Source: a virus
Taxonomy: Duplodnaviria > Caudoviricetes
Length of the DNA stretch: 64,000 nt
Strand: one strand, 5' to 3'
IMG/VR virus record: IMGVR_UViG_3300042451_000960
Both the position numbers and the translations under genes were made by a program. The notes under the pieces were generated by a model. The model searched no databases. It had not been told where the DNA came from and saw only the letters and a list, made by a program, of their open reading frames with translations. Positions 16,348 through 46,332 of this stretch are shown here, piece after piece. How positions within the stretch are numbered: the first letter of the stretch is position 1; the number at the start of each line of letters is the position of its first letter.

Positions 16348-17559
16348 TTATCTTCCTACTTCTCCCAAATATTTTTCTTTCATTTCTTCCCAGCTGATTC
16401 CAATCGCATCTATGTAGAATAAATGTTCAGGTTTGATTCTGCCTTCATCATGTAGTTTTGTGTATCTACTAATAGCGTGTTTTTTCCACCATTTATTGAT
16501 GTATTCTGTACCTTGCTTAAACTTATCTTTGATGATTAGTTTATCTTCGGTAATTTCGTTACGAAGGAATTCACAACCATTCTCATACATCATAGCCATA
16601 TACACACCTCTTTTAAATCCGTGATGATATTCAGTTGCCTTAATACCACATTCTTTAAAGATTTGTCCTAATATCTTTTGTTTGATACCACTAACAGGTC
16701 CGTTAGCTTCATATCCCATGTTAGCACCATTACGAGCTCTCTCATCTGATATATTTTCTTTATACCATTCGGCACGATTTTCTTTTAACCATTGATGCCA
16801 AGGGTCATAATACTTATCATCCGGCTTAATGCTAATCTTACCAGCCGATTCACCTAAAGTTTTGAAAAGTGGAATACCATTGTATTGAGAATGGATACCA
16901 TACAAAGATGTTGTACCTACTGCTATAAGTACATTCTCATATTTCTTCTTCCAATACTCTCTTACTTCCGGCACCGTAGTCATCATAGCGATTAACTTAC
17001 CACCTAAGAAGTTATAACCCAATGGTTGAGTACATACAATTGTAGAAGCAATAGTTGTATTATTTAACTTACCTTTTACAAATTTATCATCTTTAGTCCA
17101 ACCAATGAAGTTATCTCTCACACCTAATGCGGTTACATCGGATGCTAAAGAGATTTGACCTAATAACTTTCCGCTTGTTCTATCTTTTACATTAATCTTT
17201 ACATTTCTGCCAGGGTTTGCTGTAAAATCCATTGTGTGAATCATTCGTCTTACCGCTGCCCACTTAGTAGATTCTTTGGCATCATCCACAATCTCAACGT
17301 AAGGGTCTAACGATTCAATTTCTTTTATCGTTAGCTCCTTATTGTTGATGTCAGTTGGTCTCCATTGAAGGTCATAATAAGATGCAATTTGGGATTTAGC
17401 CTGAATCATTGTAGGGTCTTGCAACTCTACCCACTTTTTGTATAAAGTTTGCTCCTGCACAGACATCGTCATTAGATAGTCCATGTTTTCTTTTAACTTT
17501 TGTTTTTCAACATCAAAGTCAAAGACAGGTTTTTGTGGTTCGGTATCCCAAAAGCTCAT
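16348..17559 (-). CDS. DUF4338 (Druantia DruA-like) family protein
   Basis: PGRN...GKLLGQISLAS...RDNFIGW...PLGYNFLGGKL...TTSLYG pattern recognised as DUF4338-like. Confidence 0.65.
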   Translation of the reverse strand: MSFWDTEPQKPVFDFDVEKQKLKENMDYLMTMSVQEQTLYKKWVELQDPTMIQAKSQIASYYDLQWRPTDINNKELTIKEIESLDPYVEIVDDAKESTKWAAVRRMIHTMDFTANPGRNVKINVKDRTSGKLLGQISLASDVTALGVRDNFIGWTKDDKFVKGKLNNTTIASTIVCTQPLGYNFLGGKLIAMMTTVPEVREYWKKKYENVLIAVGTTSLYGIHSQYNGIPLFKTLGESAGKISIKPDDKYYDPWHQWLKENRAEWYKENISDERARNGANMGYEANGPVSGIKQKILGQIFKECGIKATEYHHGFKRGVYMAMMYENGCEFLRNEITEDKLIIKDKFKQGTEYINKWWKKHAISRYTKLHDEGRIKPEHLFYIDAIGISWEEMKEKYLGEVGR

Positions 17560-20839: not shown

Positions 20840-21955
20840 CTATTCTTTTAATTTTTTATGTAATTCAATAAGCATCTTTCCTTCATTTTCTGAAAGTTCT
20901 AATGCTCTTTCAATACTTTTTTGTTCTCTTTCTTTTCTATAAGTATCGTCATCCAATATCTTGTCTAATAGTTCAAATAGGTCTTTTTTAAATTTAAAGA
21001 ACAATCCGTTTGGTTCTATTTCCTGATAACATAGTGATTCTTGATATATCATTGGTGTACCATTCATCAAGCAATCCGTTGCCGATACACTCCAACCATA
21101 ATTTGTTTGCCTCATTTGAATACCAACTTTACATTGTTGTAATCTACCATAATATTCATGCTTTGGAAGTTTAGTAGCATCAATCCAATTATGTTCCGGT
21201 GTTCCTTTTAATTGAGGCACCCATACACTAAAATCTTGTCTACGTTCCCTATATTCTTCCATCAATTTAATGAAAGCGGGATAACCTTTATAAGCTGCTG
21301 CTCTATGATTGAATACTATAATATTTCGTTTTTCTTCCGATGCTGATTCTATTACATTTTGTTTTGGTAAACCTAAGTTCCATACCACTAAAATATCATC
21401 TAGCTTTTTAACAAACTCATCATTGAACCAAATCTTAGCTTCTTCTAATACTCTATTCTTTTGGTCTTGTGTATTAAGGTAGCAAGTTTCCATTTGAGAT
21501 ATACCTAATAATTCAATTGGCATCCATCTCCATTTATTTTTTCTATCTTCCGCATTGCAGGATTTCATTTCCCACCAATGGCAATATCCAATTATTTTAG
21601 TATCAAATGAATTCTTATATCTTCCAACTTGAGGCCAATCAGGCAAATGTGAATAGATAACATCATACTCTAATGTTTCTAACAGCTTATTGAAATCCGG
21701 CGGATAGGTACGCATTTTAATCATATCACCAGAGAAGGGTAAGATATGCTGCTTTACATTTAGTAAATTCAATTTCTTAACCGGCTCGGGTAGTATAATA
21801 TTCCAAAAGTATTCTCCGTGTTGCTCTAAACCTTTTATATGGTTATAGATAACATCAACGAATGAATCCTTTTCTATATTAGCGGAATTGGTGATATTAG
21901 GTATCACCAAAACACGCCTTGCTTCTTTACTTAATTGCCCTTCCCAAAAATTCAT
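20840..21955 (-). CDS. GT-B glycosyltransferase, candidate DNA-modifying enzyme
   Basis: DVIYSHLP, VFNHR..YKG and WSVSATDCLMNGTPMI. Its stop (TAG) directly abuts the polB ATG. Confidence 0.65.
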   Translation of the reverse strand: MNFWEGQLSKEARRVLVIPNITNSANIEKDSFVDVIYNHIKGLEQHGEYFWNIILPEPVKKLNLLNVKQHILPFSGDMIKMRTYPPDFNKLLETLEYDVIYSHLPDWPQVGRYKNSFDTKIIGYCHWWEMKSCNAEDRKNKWRWMPIELLGISQMETCYLNTQDQKNRVLEEAKIWFNDEFVKKLDDILVVWNLGLPKQNVIESASEEKRNIIVFNHRAAAYKGYPAFIKLMEEYRERRQDFSVWVPQLKGTPEHNWIDATKLPKHEYYGRLQQCKVGIQMRQTNYGWSVSATDCLMNGTPMIYQESLCYQEIEPNGLFFKFKKDLFELLDKILDDDTYRKEREQKSIERALELSENEGKMLIELHKKLKE

Positions 21956-23232
21956 TAATCTAATTGATTTGTAATTGTTGTTTGCATTTCAATAATTTGA
22001 AATGTATATTTAAGTGGATGTAAGAAATATTTTAATTTTGCAATTGCATCCGGTTGATAATCTTGCTTCCACTTATCTTCAGCAGCTGGTCCGTTGTGAT
22101 GAACCAATATAACCAACTTTGATTTTGTCTTTTCTCTACTTTTTGTTTTCTTATCAATTTCAGTTTCACTAAATATATGATTAAAAATATTATCCCACTT
22201 AAACATTGCTGATGATAAAGCTATACACATTGTATCTTTATCTTTAGTACTATCTTTTTTTGCTTCCAAAGCTTTCTTACCAGACCCAGTTGTATAATCA
22301 ATCCACAATTGATTGGCCTTCTTTAAATCATCTTTATCTATTTCTTTCTGAGCTTCTAAAAGAATTGATTTTATTTGTTTATTTGTAAACTTCATTTCTT
22401 TAAGAAACTCTTTGTTAGATGAATCATTTACTGGTACTCCTTTTAAGTGTTGAGTTTGGATATATTTTATCATATCCAACTTACTAGCACGTTGCTTTAC
22501 TACATCAGAAGGTCTATTTAAAAGATTACCAACTGCTATTAATTCCTCATTTGTATATTCATTATGTACATCTTCAGGAATTACAGCAACAATAACATCT
22601 CTACCATGCTTTGATTTAAGAATACCAGCAACTGTATGGTTTCCATCAATAATAACATTATTACCAGCTTGTCTAGCTTTAGCTACAACCACTGGGTTAC
22701 ATTTATCAGTATTTCCACCCGCATCATCAATCTTTTCTGAAATTTCTCTTACATGCTCAGGATTTTCTAAAAACCTTACCTGTAACTTAAAGTACTTACT
22801 TACTTCTTCTATTGATTCTTTTGTATCCAATGTAAATTCGCCATTTTCAATTCTTGCAACTAACTCCTTAACTTTATCCACATCAATTGGTTTATACTTT
22901 GGAGCTCCATTTGTTAAATTGAAATACATAGGATTGTTTTTAGCATCAGCTTCAGAAAGTATTTTGTGTTCCGACACAGTCATTTGATTATAATCACCAT
23001 ATTCTAAAATTTCAAATTTAAGATTAGAATCGGTATTAGATAATAGTTTATTAAACTCTTTATTTTGTGATGAATGCCAATAACCATCACCAACATATCC
23101 TTTATGGACACCAACATATACTCTATTGGTATCCATATCGGTAAAACGATATAAATATCCCTCATATGTAGTGGGCATATTTCCTAACTGAACATCTTTA
23201 ACTGATTCCGGTTTATTTGCAAATAAATTCAT
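21955..23232 (-). CDS. GIY-YIG (Seg-like) nuclease domain fused to a ParB/Srx-like domain
   Basis: N-terminal YLYRFTDMDTNRVYVGVH...ILEY...YFNL; central PVVV...IIDGNHT. Confidence 0.6.
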   Translation of the reverse strand: MNLFANKPESVKDVQLGNMPTTYEGYLYRFTDMDTNRVYVGVHKGYVGDGYWHSSQNKEFNKLLSNTDSNLKFEILEYGDYNQMTVSEHKILSEADAKNNPMYFNLTNGAPKYKPIDVDKVKELVARIENGEFTLDTKESIEEVSKYFKLQVRFLENPEHVREISEKIDDAGGNTDKCNPVVVAKARQAGNNVIIDGNHTVAGILKSKHGRDVIVAVIPEDVHNEYTNEELIAVGNLLNRPSDVVKQRASKLDMIKYIQTQHLKGVPVNDSSNKEFLKEMKFTNKQIKSILLEAQKEIDKDDLKKANQLWIDYTTGSGKKALEAKKDSTKDKDTMCIALSSAMFKWDNIFNHIFSETEIDKKTKSREKTKSKLVILVHHNGPAAEDKWKQDYQPDAIAKLKYFLHPLKYTFQIIEMQTTITNQLD

Positions 23233-23268: not shown

Positions 23269-23300
23269 TAAAGATACGAAAAATCCCCCAATTTGCCAAA
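23269..23300 (-). promoter_or_regulatory. Bacteroidetes-type promoter (TTTG-N20-TATCTTTA)
   Basis: Consensus on the minus strand upstream of the GIY-YIG/ParB-GT-polB genes. Confidence 0.65.
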
Positions 23301-23313
23301 TAAATTAGGGGAT
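23279..23313 (-). terminator. Intrinsic terminator after the Mom-like gene
   Basis: 12-bp stem AUCCCCUAAUUU/AAAUUGGGGGAU (one G-U pair) followed by a U-run. Confidence 0.6.
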
Positions 23314-23348: not shown

Positions 23349-24149
23349 TTACCAATAGTTTTCAGCCCCTTCAGGTGCTACATAATTCGTTTCATGTCTT
23401 ACCACTTCGGTGTTAAAATCGGTAGCACTTTTTGGATATGATTTGATGGGATGTTTGAGTGCCTTCATCATAGCCTTTCTTTCTTTCTTATCTTGTGGAA
23501 GTAATTGTACATATCGGTGCTTTGGTGGCTCCATTCTTCTCCAAAAGTATTGATAACCTTCTTTACCAATTTCATTTTTTAAATGCTCTAAGTTACCACT
23601 ACCCCATTTACTGAATACAGTTCTACTATGAATCCATTTGTAAGGATTTTCTTGCAAAGATATACCCCAATTTGGCATTAATGCAATATCAGATGAAATA
23701 CCCTGATATATCCAATTGGTAGCTTGATAAATTGCTCCTAAGTGTTGTTGTCCTGCATCAGCATAAGATAGTAACAACTTAATATTTTTATCATTTTCTT
23801 TAATCCACTTAAACGATTGTGATATTGCATATGATTCAATATTAGAACCATAACCATCATCACAATACAAACGGGTCAATTCTAAAATGTTATCTTTAGT
23901 CAATCCTTCACAAACAGATGTTGCTGCTTTTGCTCCAACAGGGAATCCGTAAATAATACAACCTATAAGTTTATCACCATCAAAGGTCATAGCATCTTCT
24001 GATTTATAATAGATACCTAATGCATAACGGCAAGATGTCCAAGCGTGAGTATAGTGTCTCTGAACAATAATATCTTTTGCGATATTTTTAGCTATTGGTG
24101 CGATGTACACTTTACTTACATCACAATATTGTTTACCTTCTACTTTCAT
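23349..24149 (-). CDS. mom: Mom-like adenine-modification acyltransferase (paralog 2)
   Basis: HY...LIGCIIYGFP...LELTRL...NIESYAISQS...SYADAGQQHLGAIYQATNWIYQG, the Mu Mom family signature. Confidence 0.8.
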   Translation of the reverse strand: MKVEGKQYCDVSKVYIAPIAKNIAKDIIVQRHYTHAWTSCRYALGIYYKSEDAMTFDGDKLIGCIIYGFPVGAKAATSVCEGLTKDNILELTRLYCDDGYGSNIESYAISQSFKWIKENDKNIKLLLSYADAGQQHLGAIYQATNWIYQGISSDIALMPNWGISLQENPYKWIHSRTVFSKWGSGNLEHLKNEIGKEGYQYFWRRMEPPKHRYVQLLPQDKKERKAMMKALKHPIKSYPKSATDFNTEVVRHETNYVAPEGAENYW

Positions 24150-24313
24150 TACCAGAATTTCTTTTTATCTTTTTTAGGTGGATTGGTTTCCAATTCCTTT
24201 TTTAATTTCTTTTTTTCAGCCGGCGTTAGGTTTGTCATCTTCTGCCATTCTTCCAACTTTTCCCAACTATCAATTATATAATAACCTTCCTTATCCTTTG
24301 TTAGCTTTGCCAT
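24149..24313 (-). CDS. Small basic hypothetical protein (54 aa)
   Basis: Not in the ORF track. MAKLTKDKEGYY...PPKKDKKKFW; its stop overlaps the Mom ATG and its start overlaps the upstream ORF end. Confidence 0.6.
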   Translation of the reverse strand: MAKLTKDKEGYYIIDSWEKLEEWQKMTNLTPAEKKKLKKELETNPPKKDKKKFW

Positions 24314-24539
24314 TTGCTAATGCTTTTTCCAATGTTGATTGTTTCTTTTCCAACTTTGCCAACTTTGCTCTTTGCTTCATTTGTTTATCATAGCCGGCTG
24401 GATATTTGTTTGTTACTTCAATAGGTCCATTTGGAAATTTCTTTAAATCATATTTCCAAACTGATTCAACCCCATCATCATCTTTATATACGTGTTCAAA
24501 CTTTGTGGGTTTTTCTATTGGTCCTTTAGATACTGCCAT
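24291..24539 (-). CDS. Hypothetical protein (82 aa)
   Basis: ORF directly downstream of a consensus promoter. Confidence 0.6.
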   Translation of the reverse strand: MAVSKGPIEKPTKFEHVYKDDDGVESVWKYDLKKFPNGPIEVTNKYPAGYDKQMKQRAKLAKLEKKQSTLEKALANGKANKG

Positions 24540-24553
24540 ATCATAAATTTATA

Positions 24554-24585
24554 CAAATATACGAAATTATTCTGAAACTACCAAA
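24554..24585 (-). promoter_or_regulatory. Bacteroidetes-type promoter (TTTG-N20-TATATTTG)
   Basis: Exact consensus on the minus strand. Confidence 0.7.
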
Positions 24586-25340
24586 TCTATCGGGTCCATT
24601 CTATGAACTTCATCAATAATATCCAACTCTACCTTTGGATACGGAAAGACCTCATGTTTAAGTGATTTTAAGAGGGCTTTACGCTCCTTCTTATCTTTGG
24701 TTAGAATATACACATATCGGTGCTTACGGGGTTCTCTTTTAATCCAGAATGGGCTTGTAACCATTGTCTGAATTATCTTCGGGTCATTCGTTCCGTACTT
24801 CACATAAGATGTCCGAGAATGATGCCATTCATCATCTTCACTCCATTTGAAACTCCAACTATCTGACCATCTGATTTTATTACCCTGATATATCCAATTG
24901 GTAGCTTGATATACCGTTCCTAAGTGCCCAGCATTTGGGTCTGAATAAGATATAAGTGCTTTGATACGAGGTACATTAGTTCTTAACCATTCGAAAGTTT
25001 GTCCAACGAACCAACTTTCAATGTTACTACCATACCCATCGAATACGAATAGTCTTGTCAATTCTAATACACCATCTCTAGGAAGTAATTCGGAAATTGA
25101 TGCTCCGGCGTTTCTACCAACCGGGTCACCATAACAGGCAACTCCAACTAATTGTTCGTTTACACCACTAAAAAAATTATGTTCATCTTCGGATATATAA
25201 AACAAGCCAATAGCATAGGATACCTTTGTCCATATACCACTGTAATGGTTATTGACAATAATATCCTTTGCAATATTCTTATTGATTTCTCTTATTGAGA
25301 ATTTGGATATGTCACAATATTGTTTTCCTTCTACTTTCAT
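24567..25340 (-). CDS. mom: Mom-like adenine-modification acyltransferase (paralog 1)
   Basis: HYSG...GVACYGDP...LELTRLF...NIESWFVGQ...SYSDPNAGHLGTVYQATNWIYQG. Confidence 0.8.
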   Translation of the reverse strand: MKVEGKQYCDISKFSIREINKNIAKDIIVNNHYSGIWTKVSYAIGLFYISEDEHNFFSGVNEQLVGVACYGDPVGRNAGASISELLPRDGVLELTRLFVFDGYGSNIESWFVGQTFEWLRTNVPRIKALISYSDPNAGHLGTVYQATNWIYQGNKIRWSDSWSFKWSEDDEWHHSRTSYVKYGTNDPKIIQTMVTSPFWIKREPRKHRYVYILTKDKKERKALLKSLKHEVFPYPKVELDIIDEVHRMDPIDLVVSE

Positions 25341-25540
25341 ATACTACCAGACCAAAATTCATTTAGATGATTCCAAGTTTTACGTTGGATAATCTTCATT
25401 ACATTGGCTGGGGAAACTTTATTGTTTCTTGCAATCACCTTTACGTTTCGGTGACCCATATTCCATAATCTTCTGATGTTTAGAACTTGCTCATCTGTCA
25501 GTTTAGCGGCAGGATGAGTTTGCCCTCTTAAAATAGCCAT
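25337..25540 (-). CDS. Stand-alone HTH protein resembling the DNA-binding tail of HNH homing endonucleases
   Basis: G.THPAAKLTDEQV..IR...IA....VS...V..I...KTW pattern. Confidence 0.6.
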   Translation of the reverse strand: MAILRGQTHPAAKLTDEQVLNIRRLWNMGHRNVKVIARNNKVSPANVMKIIQRKTWNHLNEFWSGSI

Positions 25541-39914: not shown

Positions 39915-41195
39915 TTAGAGGTTTCCGTAAGTTTTTCCCCAACTTGCTTTGATTGGAAACCCACCTTCTTCAATTATTTCTTTCAAACCCTTAATCAAAC
40001 TCTTATCCACATTGGTAGGTACATCAAATAGAAACGAGTCATAGGTATATAGGTCTAATGTAATCCCAGTCCCCTTAATAAAATCTAATATCTTTCTCAT
40101 CTTTTCAACATTCACTTCCGTTTCAAATGCCTGAAGTAGATAGTTAAATACTTTTTGTGGGTTTGCTTGTTCAACCCAATCCAATGGAATTAATCGGTTT
40201 GGTGTCTTAATACAACTACATTCAACACTCGCATCCCAAAATCGGTCTATGAAATCTGCCACCTTATCAAAGTACGGAATCTGTCTAAATTCGTCATCAA
40301 TCCCACCATATAAAAGACGGAATGTTACTCCTTTAGCCTCATCAATTCCACAACCATATTGTTCAGCCAACCATTGGTGAACGTTTCCATCAGGCATAGG
40401 GTATCCTACCAATTTACCGATTAGTCTTGGGTGATATGCGTTGTAATCCATTTGTAGGAATATCCCATCAGAAACGAACACATCTCTACTACCATCGGTT
40501 TTGTTTAGGGCGGCATAGTTCACACCGGCATGTCTATTCGAAGGTCTACCAGTTACAGTGAACGGATTGTATTCGGTGTACACTACATCACCTTTGAGAT
40601 GTTTGTAGGCTTGGGGCCATCTATCAACAAATTTTTCCCTATCGACCCGAATCCCAAATCGTTCAATATCTGAAAGGGTTGGTAAGAAGGTATCGTTGTA
40701 CCAATTATAAGTTTTACTCTTTTGATTTGTATGTTTAAGTAATTGTGGTTCTATTGCTTCCGCAAGTTTAAGAATAGGAATGGATTGAATGACATCTTCT
40801 CGGTAACCCCTATGAATAAGGGGAGCTACTAAGTGGTGTAGTGGTTGAGAATAGTCTATTGTTTCACCTGTCTTTAAGAAATAAGCGGTGTCAATGTCAT
40901 TCAGTCCTTCCCTTAGTGTAACAAAAGATTGTAGTAGCTTTTTCTTTTGGAATACCCATTTTTCTCCGGCAGTATTCAACAGTCCCTCTATTTGCTCATT
41001 AGAGAGTGATAGAGCGTCTGTGTGTTGATGTGGTAGTATATACCTGTCCGTTAGGGTTCTTACGAATATAAACGATATAGGGGTATTACATGGGTGCTTA
41101 TCATTATCTACCCATAGTGAATACCAAATGGATGGTTCAGTTTCCAGCTTTACCTTTAATTCGTTTAATTCGTCAATAGACTCAACAATTCTCAT
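39915..41195 (-). CDS. Divergent short family-A DNA polymerase-like protein
   Basis: TGRPS, motif A QMDYNAYHPR, motif B AKGVTFRLLYG, motif C YTYDSFLFD. Start reassigned to ATG at 41195 because the track's longer ORF overlaps the tmRNA. Confidence 0.75.
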   Translation of the reverse strand: MRIVESIDELNELKVKLETEPSIWYSLWVDNDKHPCNTPISFIFVRTLTDRYILPHQHTDALSLSNEQIEGLLNTAGEKWVFQKKKLLQSFVTLREGLNDIDTAYFLKTGETIDYSQPLHHLVAPLIHRGYREDVIQSIPILKLAEAIEPQLLKHTNQKSKTYNWYNDTFLPTLSDIERFGIRVDREKFVDRWPQAYKHLKGDVVYTEYNPFTVTGRPSNRHAGVNYAALNKTDGSRDVFVSDGIFLQMDYNAYHPRLIGKLVGYPMPDGNVHQWLAEQYGCGIDEAKGVTFRLLYGGIDDEFRQIPYFDKVADFIDRFWDASVECSCIKTPNRLIPLDWVEQANPQKVFNYLLQAFETEVNVEKMRKILDFIKGTGITLDLYTYDSFLFDVPTNVDKSLIKGLKEIIEEGGFPIKASWGKTYGNL

Positions 41196-41200
41196 TACCA

Positions 41201-41232
41201 CAAATATACAAAAAAAATCCCAAACTACCAAA
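41201..41232 (-). promoter_or_regulatory. Bacteroidetes-type promoter (TTTG-N20-TATATTTG)
   Basis: Exact consensus ending 5 nt before the polA-like ATG. Confidence 0.7.
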
Positions 41233-41249
41233 TAATAGTTCGGGATTTT
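41211..41249 (-). terminator. Intrinsic terminator of the tmRNA
   Basis: 14-bp stem AAAAUCCCGAACUA/UAGUUUGGGAUUUU (one G-U pair) plus a U-run just 3' of the CCA end. Confidence 0.7.
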
Positions 41250-41250
41250 G

Positions 41251-41640
41251 TGGTGGAGATGACCGGACTCGAACCGGTGTCTTACGAAGTAACCACAATA
41301 CCAGCTTTTCACACGTTTAGGATAAGGTTTAATCTTATTCACCTTCCAAAATAATTGGGGCCGAATGGTTAGTTCAGCGCTACCACCAACAGGTCCGGAT
41401 TTTAAGAGGCGATCTGTAATCCTCTCTTTTGTTCACTTCTATTTAAATTCCACGAGTGATGCGGAAGGGATTAGGCTGCTACAGCGTAATCAGCACCTAC
41501 GAATGCCATAACGTCATCGAAGGTCCAAGTAGATAATTCTACGTCATTTATTGTTTGATTCCGAGATTTAAGTGGTTTGAGAACCTTCCCACTACGTGTG
41601 ATACTATGTTTCGCATCGCAATCAATTCCAAAACATCCCC
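41251..41640 (-). ncRNA. ssrA: tmRNA (transfer-messenger RNA), 390 nt
   Basis: 5' GGGGAUG pairs with 3' CAUCUCC-A-CCA, giving the G3-U70 alanine identity pair. T-arm ACCGG-UUCGAGU-CCGGU. Internal tag ORF 41471..41545 ends YAVAA*. Confidence 0.95.
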
Positions 41641-41653
41641 ATATCAATAAATA

Positions 41654-41685
41654 CAAATATAAGAAAAAATATTTAGATTTCCAAA
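41654..41685 (-). promoter_or_regulatory. Bacteroidetes-type promoter for tmRNA
   Basis: TTTG-N20-TATATTTG ending 13 nt before the mature tmRNA 5' end. Confidence 0.7.
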
Positions 41686-42380
41686 TTAAAATTAATTACA
41701 CATCGGTGTTTTTTACCATAAAAAGGTTTTACCGAATGAACTATATCATTTGGCCATAACATTAACATTCCTTGTTTAGGTCTTACAAAATGTGACATAC
41801 CTCTTAGGTGAAAACAAAATGCTCCGCTGTATGGGTGGTCTTTTAGCGGTTCACCATCACTTAGATAATATCCACCACTAAACCCAACTTTAGGTTCTTC
41901 ATCGGATTTCCAACGGCAGTGATTATGTTGGTTGTGTCCCCTACCCTCATATGGGTCATAATATTGTATCCAACTTTCGGTTATTTTACATTGATGATTG
42001 TGCGGTATTTCCAGAGAATCTAAAAGTTCAAAAAAACTATCTTCAATTCTTTTTCTGATTATTTTTACACCTTCGTTTTCATCATCCAAAAAATTATTTG
42101 GTGGTGTATGAAATCTACTACCTATTGGATTAAATTCAGTATCTTCAACCCACATATCACTATTATCGTTTGTTTCATATGTTGCCTGCCTTTGTTCATC
42201 ATATCTTTCAGGCAATTCCTGCCCCATTTTCTTTTCTGTTTTGTTTAATTTATTATAACCATAAACATAGACCGAATCATGCAATTGTTTATCATCGTAT
42301 TCTTTACGAAGAACTGGAATAGGAGCTAGATAATAAAGATTATCTTTGTCCGATTTAATTAGTGGTTGTTTGAAGTTCAT
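41673..42380 (-). CDS. Putative 2OG-Fe(II) oxygenase (TIGR02466-like)
   Basis: ESWIQYY...HNQHNH...FSGGYY...P.QG.LMLWP..IVHSV.P...R.VINFN. Confidence 0.75.
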   Translation of the reverse strand: MNFKQPLIKSDKDNLYYLAPIPVLRKEYDDKQLHDSVYVYGYNKLNKTEKKMGQELPERYDEQRQATYETNDNSDMWVEDTEFNPIGSRFHTPPNNFLDDENEGVKIIRKRIEDSFFELLDSLEIPHNHQCKITESWIQYYDPYEGRGHNQHNHCRWKSDEEPKVGFSGGYYLSDGEPLKDHPYSGAFCFHLRGMSHFVRPKQGMLMLWPNDIVHSVKPFYGKKHRCVINFNLEI

Positions 42381-44649: not shown

Positions 44650-46332
44650 TTAATGTTTATATATAATAAAATTTCCAATAATTAACAAATCAATATCACT
44701 GTTTAAATATGAATCTACTGCGTTTTTTGGTGTCAAAACCATAGGTCTATCTTTTGTATTAAATGATGTATTTAAAAGAATAGGATGATTCGATAATATT
44801 TCAAATTCTAATAATAGTTTGTGAAACAATGTATTTTTATTTACACTTTGTATTCTAGCTGTTCCATCTACATTTGATACTTCTTTTAAAAGTTTTTTAT
44901 ATTTTCTTTTAACATTAACAATTTTATTCATATATGGTACATCACCAATTGTATTAAAATATTCATTTTGTTTTTCTACAATTACTGCAGGTGCCAATGG
45001 TCTAAAATTTTCTCTTTGTTTTATAATATTATTTATTTTATCTTTTACACCATTTATAAAAGGATTTGCCAATATTGAACGATTTCCCAATGCTCTTTGT
45101 CCAAATTCATTGTGTCCGTGATACCACCCAATTATCTTACCTTCCCATAATAATTTTGCAACAACCTTTAACATTTTTTCTTCAGATGTAAATTGTTTGT
45201 ATTTCAGTTTTCCTATTGCTTCGATTACATTATTATACAAATACGAAGGACCTAAAAATGGGTTTGGTGTTATTTTATATACTTTATTTTTAGAAGCCAA
45301 ATAATTTAAACAAGCTCCAACACAAGAACCAGCATCGGATGGTGCTACTGGTATCCACAATTTTTTGTATTTTGTTCTTTTTAAAATTTTTCCATTTGCC
45401 AAACCATTGTATGCACAACCACCCCCTAATATTAAGTTTTTTATTTCATATTTTTTGTACAAATCATTAAGAATTTTAATTAATATGTTTTCATAGTTTA
45501 GTTGTACAGCTGCAGCCAAATCTTTATGAATTTGAACTATTGGTAAATTTGTATCTTTGGGTTCTATTTCCAACAATTCGCATAACTTAACATTAAACAT
45601 TGAAGAATCTTCTCTATCCCAACAAAAAACTTTCATATTGCATTTTAATGTACCATTTTCATAAGATATTAATTTTTTTACTTTATCCATATAAACATTT
45701 GGATTACCATAAGCTGCCAATCCCATTACCTTATACTCACCTTCATTTGGTTTGAATCCTAAAAATGCAGTCATCGCTGAATAAAATAAACCCAACGAAT
45801 GTGGATACTCTGCAATTGTGTTTTTTTCAGGGACACCATTTTCTATTGTACAAAAAGTTGTTGTATCAAATTCACCAACACCATCTACACTTAAACCTAT
45901 CGCATTATCAAAATTTGAAGTATAATAAGAATAAAATAGATGGGAATTATGATGGTCTGAATAAAATACGTTTTTAGATACTAATTCTAAATTGTTTTTA
46001 CAAGTTATCATTTTTATTTTAAAGCCGATTATAGACTTTACACAATACCAAAAACTTCTATACCAATTATTTTTAAAATTTTGAATTAATCTTTTGTATT
46101 TAAGTTTTGGGTCTTCATAATAACACACTACGTCAATATCTTTTTTTGATAATTTATATGTTTTAAAAATATATCGTATTGAATTAAATGGAAATGAACT
46201 ATCATGCTTTTTGCCTGTAAATTTTTCTTCTTCGCAGGCAAATATTAATTCGCCATTTTTAAACAGGCATGCAGATGAGTCGTGATAATAAGCCGATACT
46301 CCAATTATATAACTATTTTTTTTGGTATCCAT
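44650..46332 (-). CDS. Carbamoyltransferase (CmcH/NodU family)
   Basis: HDSSAC..EEE, HH.SH, DGVGE, HSLG, EYKVMGLAAYG, GGCAYN, DAGS, GQRALGNRS, FRPLAP and LLNTSFN motifs. Confidence 0.93.
   Translation of the reverse strand: MDTKKNSYIIGVSAYYHDSSACLFKNGELIFACEEEKFTGKKHDSSFPFNSIRYIFKTYKLSKKDIDVVCYYEDPKLKYKRLIQNFKNNWYRSFWYCVKSIIGFKIKMITCKNNLELVSKNVFYSDHHNSHLFYSYYTSNFDNAIGLSVDGVGEFDTTTFCTIENGVPEKNTIAEYPHSLGLFYSAMTAFLGFKPNEGEYKVMGLAAYGNPNVYMDKVKKLISYENGTLKCNMKVFCWDREDSSMFNVKLCELLEIEPKDTNLPIVQIHKDLAAAVQLNYENILIKILNDLYKKYEIKNLILGGGCAYNGLANGKILKRTKYKKLWIPVAPSDAGSCVGACLNYLASKNKVYKITPNPFLGPSYLYNNVIEAIGKLKYKQFTSEEKMLKVVAKLLWEGKIIGWYHGHNEFGQRALGNRSILANPFINGVKDKINNIIKQRENFRPLAPAVIVEKQNEYFNTIGDVPYMNKIVNVKRKYKKLLKEVSNVDGTARIQSVNKNTLFHKLLLEFEILSNHPILLNTSFNTKDRPMVLTPKNAVDSYLNSDIDLLIIGNFIIYKH

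Follow-up and report, generated by a model that had tools for sequence, protein, structure and literature searches.

Why would a phage keep two Mom enzymes side by side? Bacteriophage Mu has a single mom gene, whose product is a homodimeric GNAT that transfers glycine from Gly-tRNAGly to the N6 of adenine in double-stranded DNA (Silva et al., Nat Commun 2026, PMC13219725). In Mu, this modification conceals adenines from restriction enzymes. The stretch of DNA analysed here, which we call the window, comprises 64,000 nucleotides of the IMG/VR virus record IMGVR_UViG_3300042451_000960 (Duplodnaviria; Caudoviricetes). We read it as part of an uncultivated freshwater T4-like myovirus, and it has two mom genes, momB (upstream) and momA (downstream). 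The question is therefore whether the two enzymes differ in their targets or in their chemistry, depend on each other, are made at different times, or are simply redundant. Both are intact and well-diverged members of the Mom family, and the explanation that we favour, while placing it just short of probable, is that they are two independent enzymes that differ mainly in the DNA sequence context they modify.

The original prediction, made from the sequence of the window, had proposed two diverged Mom paralogs in near tandem, and this description holds. Both open reading frames (ORFs) are present on the minus strand (Table 1), and their products are 48% identical over 256 columns (BLASTP, E=3e-82), far past chance. 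They share the start MKVEGKQYCD(V/I)SK and the full set of Mom motifs noted earlier (HY, ELTRL, SY(A/S)D and GxxYQATNW), and they diverge towards the C-terminus as described (HSRTVFSKWG vs. HSRTSYVKYG). Profile searches place both in the Mom family: against a PF25680 cut-off of 27.1 bits, momA scores 153 and momB 149 bits, with positions 2-202 of the 202-position profile covered, and each matches PHROG 1384 with an E-value of about 1e-47. The fold and the catalytic residues agree with this assignment. AlphaFold2 (AF2) models of momA and momB have pLDDT values of 90.6 and 92.0, respectively, and for both models the best match in the PDB according to Foldseek is Mu Mom (8BV8 chains; E-values of 6e-15 for momA and 3e-13 for momB, template modelling score on the target 0.68-0.74), with other GNATs well behind (E>=1e-4). 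A search of the window with a family hidden Markov model (HMM) found no third Mom-like gene. The two proteins are thus true, full-length members of the Mom family of GNATs, and the assignment is secure. They are diverged paralogs and do not represent a recent duplication.

How close are these proteins to the one Mom enzyme with a solved mechanism? Residues of Mu Mom that matter for activity are H58, Y59, R111, S124, D149, R151, Y159 and W181 (PMC13219725). In an alignment that combined Mu Mom, momA and momB with 86 family representatives, 36 momA orthologs and 33 momB orthologs, both paralogs retain every one of them save R151. The momB counterparts (H32, Y33, R96, S109, D134, Y144 and W172) are invariant in the 33 orthologs, as are H32, Y33, R93, S106, D131 and Y141 of momA in its 36 orthologs, 35 of which also keep W172. 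The H58-Y159 set is kept in all 13 Mom classes found in related contigs, save that the S124 position is a threonine in some members of two classes. momA and momB are just 20-24% identical to Mu Mom, but they share with it the Pfam family, the GNAT fold with a helix-turn-helix (HTH)-like insertion, the catalytic H, Y, R, S, D, Y and W and, by analogy, presumably the same aminoacyl-tRNA-dependent chemistry at N6 of adenine.

To see how widely the pair is kept, IMG/VR was scanned with momA, momB and three family representatives (P0002, P0003 and P0012) as queries, giving approximately 300 loci; pair counts come from the family HMM over the first 228. The arrangement momB>momA occurs at 52 distinct loci, at 26 of which the genes are adjacent or overlap by 4-17 nt, while at 25 the spacer is shorter than 1.2 kb and at one it measures 1.35 kb. 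Both copies are intact in every complete pair locus, and the pair persists where momA orthologs have dropped to ~60% and momB orthologs to ~64% identity. Ratios of nonsynonymous to synonymous substitution (dN/dS) relative to the window copies are 0.06-0.17 for momA and 0.02-0.16 for momB, indicating purifying selection. In a Mom-family tree rooted on Mu Mom, the momB clade (Shimodaira-Hasegawa-like approximate likelihood ratio test support 95) is sister to a clade of momA and class c2 (85) within a joint clade (92); our Mom trees come from quick searches and have moderate support. This topology fits an old duplication within the aquatic T4-like phage branch of the Mom clade. We conclude that the pair is an old, conserved and selected module.

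These data also bear on the simplest alternative, namely that one copy serves as a spare or a regulator, or survives as an inactive remnant, and that the two have no joint function. Relatives with a single Mom exist, so that one enzyme can suffice, and at one related locus (L044:5094-7148), upstream of a momA-type gene, a Mom of a distant class, with 27-29% identity to the two paralogs of the window, is accompanied by a short Mom fragment (residues ~63-153) lying between the two Mom genes, which may be a decayed momB replaced by another class. Against this stand the integrity of both copies, the invariant catalytic residues, dN/dS values (0.02-0.17 overall) far below 1, and the joint retention in more than 50 distinct relatives of paralogs that are only 48% identical, even where identity among their orthologs has fallen to 60-65%. 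Neither of the two appears inactive or redundant, and we regard this alternative as very improbable.

The pair on the window is one instance of multi-Mom arrays in aquatic T4-like phages. Related contigs carry one to four Mom copies; for example, three Mom genes stand in tandem at L079:2523-4780 and four in a row at L196:1647-4741, and at 18 distinct loci (L057-L078, L146-L149) a short Mom class of 210-220 residues lies 2-3 kb downstream of a momA-type gene. Across 84 co-resident Mom pairs, identity has a median of 43% and a maximum of 52%; because none exceeds 52%, the arrays are always assembled from old, distinct classes and never from fresh duplicates, and recent duplicates kept for dosage are absent among these pairs. 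In deposited phage genomes, a tblastn search of 50,697 records yields a Mom homolog in 274 (momA query) or 333 (momB query), and none of the 333 Mom-bearing records has two copies. We found no description of multiple Mom genes in the literature, and no relatives of momB turned up when prokaryote genomes were scanned.

Where, then, do the two enzymes differ? In Mu Mom, the HTH-like insertion (residues 175-209) is essential, and an AlphaFold3 (AF3) model puts it in the major groove of DNA (PMC13219725). Both momA and momB align across this insertion, for which the AF2 models predict helices at residues 175-182 and 187-196 of momA and 175-182 and 187-191 of momB. Its length, measured as the distance from YQATNW to KHRY, is class-specific (momA, 63 residues; momB, 56; the short classes c3 and c7, 35; Mu, 49). 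At 37 alignment columns, a residue is fixed within momA orthologs and a different one within momB orthologs, and 21 of these columns fall in the 60 that align with Mu ~170-210, i.e. the HTH-like insertion (Fisher p=8e-7). In sequence terms, the pattern is that of a constant catalytic core joined to a variable, putatively DNA-reading module. Variable sites within momA itself are scattered over the entire protein, and diversifying selection on the momA insertion was accordingly rejected as an explanation. DNA methyltransferases provide a parallel, in that a conserved catalytic core is combined with a target-recognition domain, a variable DNA-reading module that sets the motif. The class-specific Mom insertion mirrors this organisation, with unrelated fold and chemistry, and we hypothesise that it sets the motif for Mom.

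Our preference for different DNA targets follows from this clustering of fixed differences in the insertion that is predicted to read DNA. The paralogs go back to an old duplication in the Mom clade of aquatic T4-like phages, and momB>momA has been inherited jointly, as a module beside replication genes. By homology with Mu Mom, each enzyme would use a charged tRNA as the source of an amino acid and transfer the latter to adenine N6 in the double-stranded phage DNA, which would be shielded from restriction enzymes as a result. Each would act alone with its own DNA-context preference, and jointly they would modify a larger and more diverse set of adenines than a single enzyme. Mu Mom modifies S-A-S (SAS) sites, ~20% of dA. 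Since SAS contexts hold just 8.5% of the adenines in the window, other context preferences would widen coverage greatly. The chemistry, the independence of the enzymes and their difference in target context are what we infer here. In favour of independence, the momA type is the sole Mom on related contigs with the same orf67 and polymerase backbone (L035, L039, L040, L041, L083, L095, L101 and L102).

Several observations weigh against this explanation. First, a sequence-reading role of the insertion rests on the published AF3 model, with no solved complex. Second, R151, essential in Mu, is replaced by Gly133 in momA and by Asn136 in momB, whose clade has Asn or Lys there. Third, some of the fixed differences adjoin catalytic residues (momA vs. 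momB at Mu position 115, D vs. F; 126, A vs. F; 148, A vs. S; 151, G vs. N/K), and these could alter the donor or acceptor pocket instead. Finally, whereas the momA type is often the sole Mom on a contig, the momB type never is, among 52 loci and a further 71 with adequate flank. With regard to R151, the position is variable over the whole branch of the family, with a histidine at Mu position 154 that is invariant instead (in 85 of the 86 representatives). For that reason, we consider R151 a feature of the Mu lineage and not of the family, and going by the alignment the histidine may substitute for it.

The differences near the active site lead to a second explanation, according to which each paralog uses another aminoacyl-tRNA (glycine in one case), giving two chemically distinct adenine adducts in the phage DNA. 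The selectivity of Mu Mom for Gly-tRNAGly has no known determinant (PMC13219725), so that paralogs could differ in it. The fixed differences just described lie beside the catalytic Arg, Ser and Asp, and position 151 differs among most Mom classes. However, most fixed differences are in the insertion and not round the active site, no residue is known to set donor choice, and the argument is one of sequence proximity. Some relatives offer a further hint. In at least seven distinct single-Mom loci (Table 1), the Mom stop codon is overlapped by the gene for a RimK-type ATP-grasp ligase (PF08443, E=1.6e-51, with a RimK_N pre-ATP-grasp domain), and a 43%-identical version of the ligase is located between momB and momA at L003:4675-5559 and L048:5369-6253. 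This suggests that the Mom amino-acid adduct is extended in RimK-bearing lineages; such translational coupling implies an extendable adduct, which carbamoylmethyl is not in any obvious way. The window itself has no RimK-like gene, and we found no report of a link between Mom and ATP-grasp proteins in the literature. On balance, different donors for momA and momB seem unlikely. In a broader version, the Mom classes, of which a related phage may carry as many as four, would differ in the aminoacyl-tRNA they use or would act one after another, with a coupled RimK-type ligase extending the adduct in some lineages; this strikes us as rather unlikely. If it were true, abundant freshwater phages would carry undescribed aminoacyl or peptidyl adenine hypermodifications made by an interchangeable array of enzymes.

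That momB is never alone fits a dependent or heteromeric role as well as the role of an add-on. A dependent momB would be active only with another Mom, either as a heterodimer partner or by carrying out a second step on the momA product in the manner of FemX/FemA/FemB. FemA and FemB have stepwise roles, in which successive glycines are added. These are paralogous GNAT-fold enzymes with a charged-tRNA donor that act successively on one growing substrate, a precedent for sequential chemistry, and FemX has been cited as a GNAT-fold analogue of Mom (PMC13219725); the acceptor is a peptidoglycan precursor and not DNA, and the likeness is in logic only. When momB served as query, each of the 71 new loci with enough flank proved to have a second Mom, and the six apparent exceptions end less than 1.6 kb past momB. 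Moreover, Mu Mom is an obligate homodimer (PMC13219725), the genes overlap or are translationally coupled in many relatives, and the N-terminal 33 residues of momA and momB, aligned with the segment containing Y28 and W48 of the Mu dimer interface, are 73% identical compared to 48% overall; the W48 position itself is Asn22 in both paralogs. A complex prediction for momA with momB, run without controls, gave a score of 0.00 and weighs neither for nor against binding.

Other data speak against such dependence. momB keeps the full catalytic set and an insertion of its own, as expected of a self-sufficient enzyme. In the closest relatives of the window momB is 93-99% identical and momA just 78-98%, the synonymous divergence of momA is about twice as high, and the momA and momB trees differ in branching order. 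Because of these differences we think that momA alleles have been exchanged by recombination against a nearly constant momB, which argues against tight co-adaptation. In addition, there is a neutral route to the asymmetry: recombination between the 5' blocks that the genes share in direct orientation would remove momB, with orf67>momA as the outcome, and no such route would eliminate momA. The orf67>momA layout is seen in L035 and L039, both of which nest among pair-bearing relatives. Since this neutral explanation exists, we do not rate dependence of momB higher than as a minority possibility, and independent enzymes with different sequence contexts remain our preferred explanation.

A further alternative is that the paralogs have the same activity and differ in timing only, with momB made together with the upstream nucleotide-metabolism genes and momA from a promoter of its own. 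The original prediction had placed a consensus promoter at 24554-24585, from which the second paralog would be transcribed separately, and two small ORFs between the genes. The ORFs, orf82 and orf54, are indeed there, in a spacer of 417 nt. As a sigma-70 promoter the site does not stand up; it matches the consensus at only 9 of 12 positions (TTGGTA-17-TATATT), and a sigma-70 scan, which found fewer promoter-like sites than in shuffled sequence, adds no weight to it. Instead, 24554-24584 is a copy of a repeated, phage-specific motif, TTGG(T/A)A-N17-(C/T)GTATATTTG. The core GTATATTTG has 8 copies in the window, all on the coding strand, vs. 1.46 expected, and no shuffle reached 8. The full motif lies 6-106 nt upstream of gene starts at 6 of the 8 core sites, including those of the sliding clamp, the helicase, the single-stranded DNA-binding protein (SSB) and orf82. 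From its sequence and placement it is probably the phage's promoter class for replication genes, and we take it to resemble the TAnnTTTG -7 box of Bacteroidota promoters.

In favour of a difference in timing, the motif lies between momB and orf82, with no copy directly upstream of momB, and in ~20 spacer-bearing relatives the sequence that follows the momB stop is conserved. Where the genes overlap, both the motif and orf82 are absent; orf82 is found by tblastn in 25 of the 52 distinct pair loci, and orf54 in just 4 (57-100% identical there). The genes of about half of the distinct pair loci overlap, by 4-17 nt, without room for a promoter, and both genes are kept all the same; furthermore, 48% identity and class-specific insertions exceed the divergence that timing needs. 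Separate transcription of momA is therefore plausible in the window, where the repeated motif stands ahead of orf82 and momA, and is no property of the pair in general. momA probably has an extra replication-class promoter in the lineage of the window, which is not the reason for the existence of the pair, and timing as the sole difference is improbable. Contigs from RNA libraries of four freshwater studies cover parts of momA and momB, and one of them spans 24065-24319 with zero differences; such contigs do not show transcription, starts or levels, and the uncovered parts carry no meaning.

The nearly identical DNA at the 5' ends, also noted in the original prediction, amounts to a single difference in the first 30 nt of the two genes. 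Elsewhere they are identical over 30 nt at the YQATNWIYQG codons, over 14 nt at KHRYV and over 11 nt at LELT. Gene conversion between the paralogs was considered as an explanation and rejected: in the 5' block, momA-momB identity within genomes (0.808) equals that between genomes (0.815; permutation test, p=0.91), and the same is true elsewhere. A few synonymous variants common to both genes (CAC CGA in the KHRY block) hint at micro-conversion at most. The blocks are the most conserved peptide motifs written in preferred AT-rich codons.

The genomic setting of the pair differs from that in Mu, where Com, a zinc-finger translation activator, overlaps mom in a late com-mom operon at the genome end. 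The mom genes of the window are located among replication genes, share the motif found at the clamp, helicase and SSB genes, and are coupled by stop/start overlaps only. We looked for a Com-like regulator in orf67, orf82 and orf54, and none of the three has a cysteine or a match to a Com or zinc-finger family; searches of Pfam gave nothing credible for them at E<=5. On the minus strand the order is ribonucleotide reductase, DUF5522 protein, thioredoxin, orf67, momB, orf82, orf54, momA, hairpin, p425, glycosyltransferase-like gene and DNA polymerase. The small HTH-like orf67 is directly upstream of the first mom gene in 47 of the 52 pair loci; its PHROG match is to the C-terminal part of an HNH-endonuclease family, and its Pfam HTH matches are merely faint.

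From orf67 to the polymerase, this region is a variable island, which in relatives holds glycosyltransferase variants, DruA-family proteins, GmrSD_N+HNH proteins and PD-(D/E)XK nucleases. The genes downstream of momA are mosaic (window 20840-23232 compared with L001-L049), and variants of the glycosyltransferase-like gene are ~31%, 58% or >90% identical to that of the window, which encodes several glycosyltransferases. p425 is present in just 6 of the 52 pair loci, at ~47% identity, and has no credible Pfam match even at E<=5 and none in PHROG or PADLOC; a reading of p425 as a GIY-YIG/ParB protein, and thus a possible nuclease, was not confirmed, the motifs having been spotted by eye with no profile in support. 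PADLOC likewise returned no match for the Mom genes or the glycosyltransferase. In some relatives (L007:6957-8528; also L018, L028, L049 and L088), the genes for momA and the glycosyltransferase are separated by one for a protein combining GmrSD_N (DUF262-type) and HNH domains, an architecture known from restriction enzymes specific for modified DNA, which they cut. DruA-family homologs lie inside the Mom/polymerase island in ~20 related loci (e.g. L102:6227-7450). In the window, the DruA-family gene adjoins the sliding clamp, without other Druantia genes; considered as a candidate Mom relative, its product showed no similarity to Mom in a profile comparison. In jumbo phages, fusions of Mom to restriction endonucleases have been described as 'momylation systems', in which the nuclease partner of the Mom domain is proposed to attack DNA that lacks the modification (Iyer et al. 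2021, PMC7824862). The variable genes adjoining the Mom pair resemble these systems to the extent that they include nuclease-like proteins (the GmrSD_N+HNH proteins of relatives; p425 is unconfirmed by any profile). The Moms of the window differ in being stand-alone, unfused and present in multiples.

The window is AT-rich (~32% G+C), with nearly all of its genes on the minus strand, and encodes T4-type replication and structural proteins (family-B DNA polymerase, sliding clamp, clamp loader, UvsX-like recombinase, gp32-like SSB, DnaB-like helicase and tail sheath). A matching stretch is present in many lake-water metagenomes. Megablast of the mom locus against deposited phage records gave no match, and none of the deposited phages is close at the DNA level; the nearest isolate by polymerase is Microcystis phage Mel-JY01 (52% identity), which lacks a Mom gene but shares the thioredoxin > polymerase > clamp backbone. 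Elsewhere in the window there is a full-length transfer-messenger RNA (tmRNA) gene, which overlaps the annotated 5' end of a 475-residue ORF whose true start is probably further downstream, and which has a copy of the GTATATTTG motif nearby (41201-41231). Genes for a NodU/CmcH-type carbamoyltransferase and a 2-oxoglutarate (2OG)-Fe(II) oxygenase-like protein are found in a very AT-rich block (26-29% G+C, 42-52 kb).

Table 1 Features of the window and of related loci, with positions and family matches.
Feature	Position	Strand	Remarks
momA, downstream Mom paralog	23349-24149	-	266 aa; PF25680 E=1e-44, PHROG 1384
momB, upstream Mom paralog	24567-25340	-	257 aa; PF25680 E=1.5e-43, PHROG 1384
orf54, small spacer ORF	24149-24313	-	stop overlaps momA start (TAATG); no family match
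orf82, small spacer ORF	24291-24539	-	no Pfam or PHROG match
Promoter-like motif TTGGTA-N17-CGTATATTTG	24554-24584	-	15 nt upstream of orf82
GTATATTTG sites	6139, 7590, 18291, 24554, 29647, 32798, 41201, 43171	-	
orf67, small HTH-like protein	25337-25540	-	stop overlaps momB start (ATGA); PHROG 20467 E=1e-6
Terminator-like hairpin after momA	23283-23313	-	12 pairs and T run
p425, downstream of momA	21955-23232	-	425 aa; no Pfam, PHROG or PADLOC family
DruA-family protein	16348-17559	-	PF14236 E=4e-18; PADLOC DruA E=2e-17
tmRNA	41251-41640	-	ARAGORN (tag ends ...YAVAA); Rfam RF00023, 76 bits vs. gathering 47, E=9e-28
475-aa ORF overlapped by tmRNA	39915-41342		
2OG-Fe(II) oxygenase-like protein	41673-42380	-	
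NodU/CmcH-type carbamoyltransferase	44650-46332	-	PF02543 and PF16861, E ~1e-56 to 1e-60
Single-Mom loci with coupled RimK-type ligase	L106:3157-4050; L084, L087, L103, L189, L192, L193		related contigs

What does the finding mean for the Mom family? The mechanism of Mom was solved just in 2026, for one enzyme from one phage (PMC13219725), whereas two long-diverged Moms are kept side by side in common lake-water T4-like phages, and as many as four in relatives of these. The closest functional analogy for such a two-enzyme modification module is provided by the alpha- and beta-glucosyltransferases of T4, with which one phage applies two enzymes to the same base after replication and reportedly raises its counter-defence (PMC13216743); these enzymes differ in having a GT-B fold and in adding glucose to hydroxymethylcytosine. 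The Mom classes constitute a natural panel for asking what sets the DNA motif of Mom, what sets its choice of donor, and whether there are adducts other than carbamoylmethyl, for which the Mom-RimK pairs of relatives are the strongest hint. Taken as a whole, the multi-Mom arrangement suggests a wider or more varied camouflage of phage DNA.

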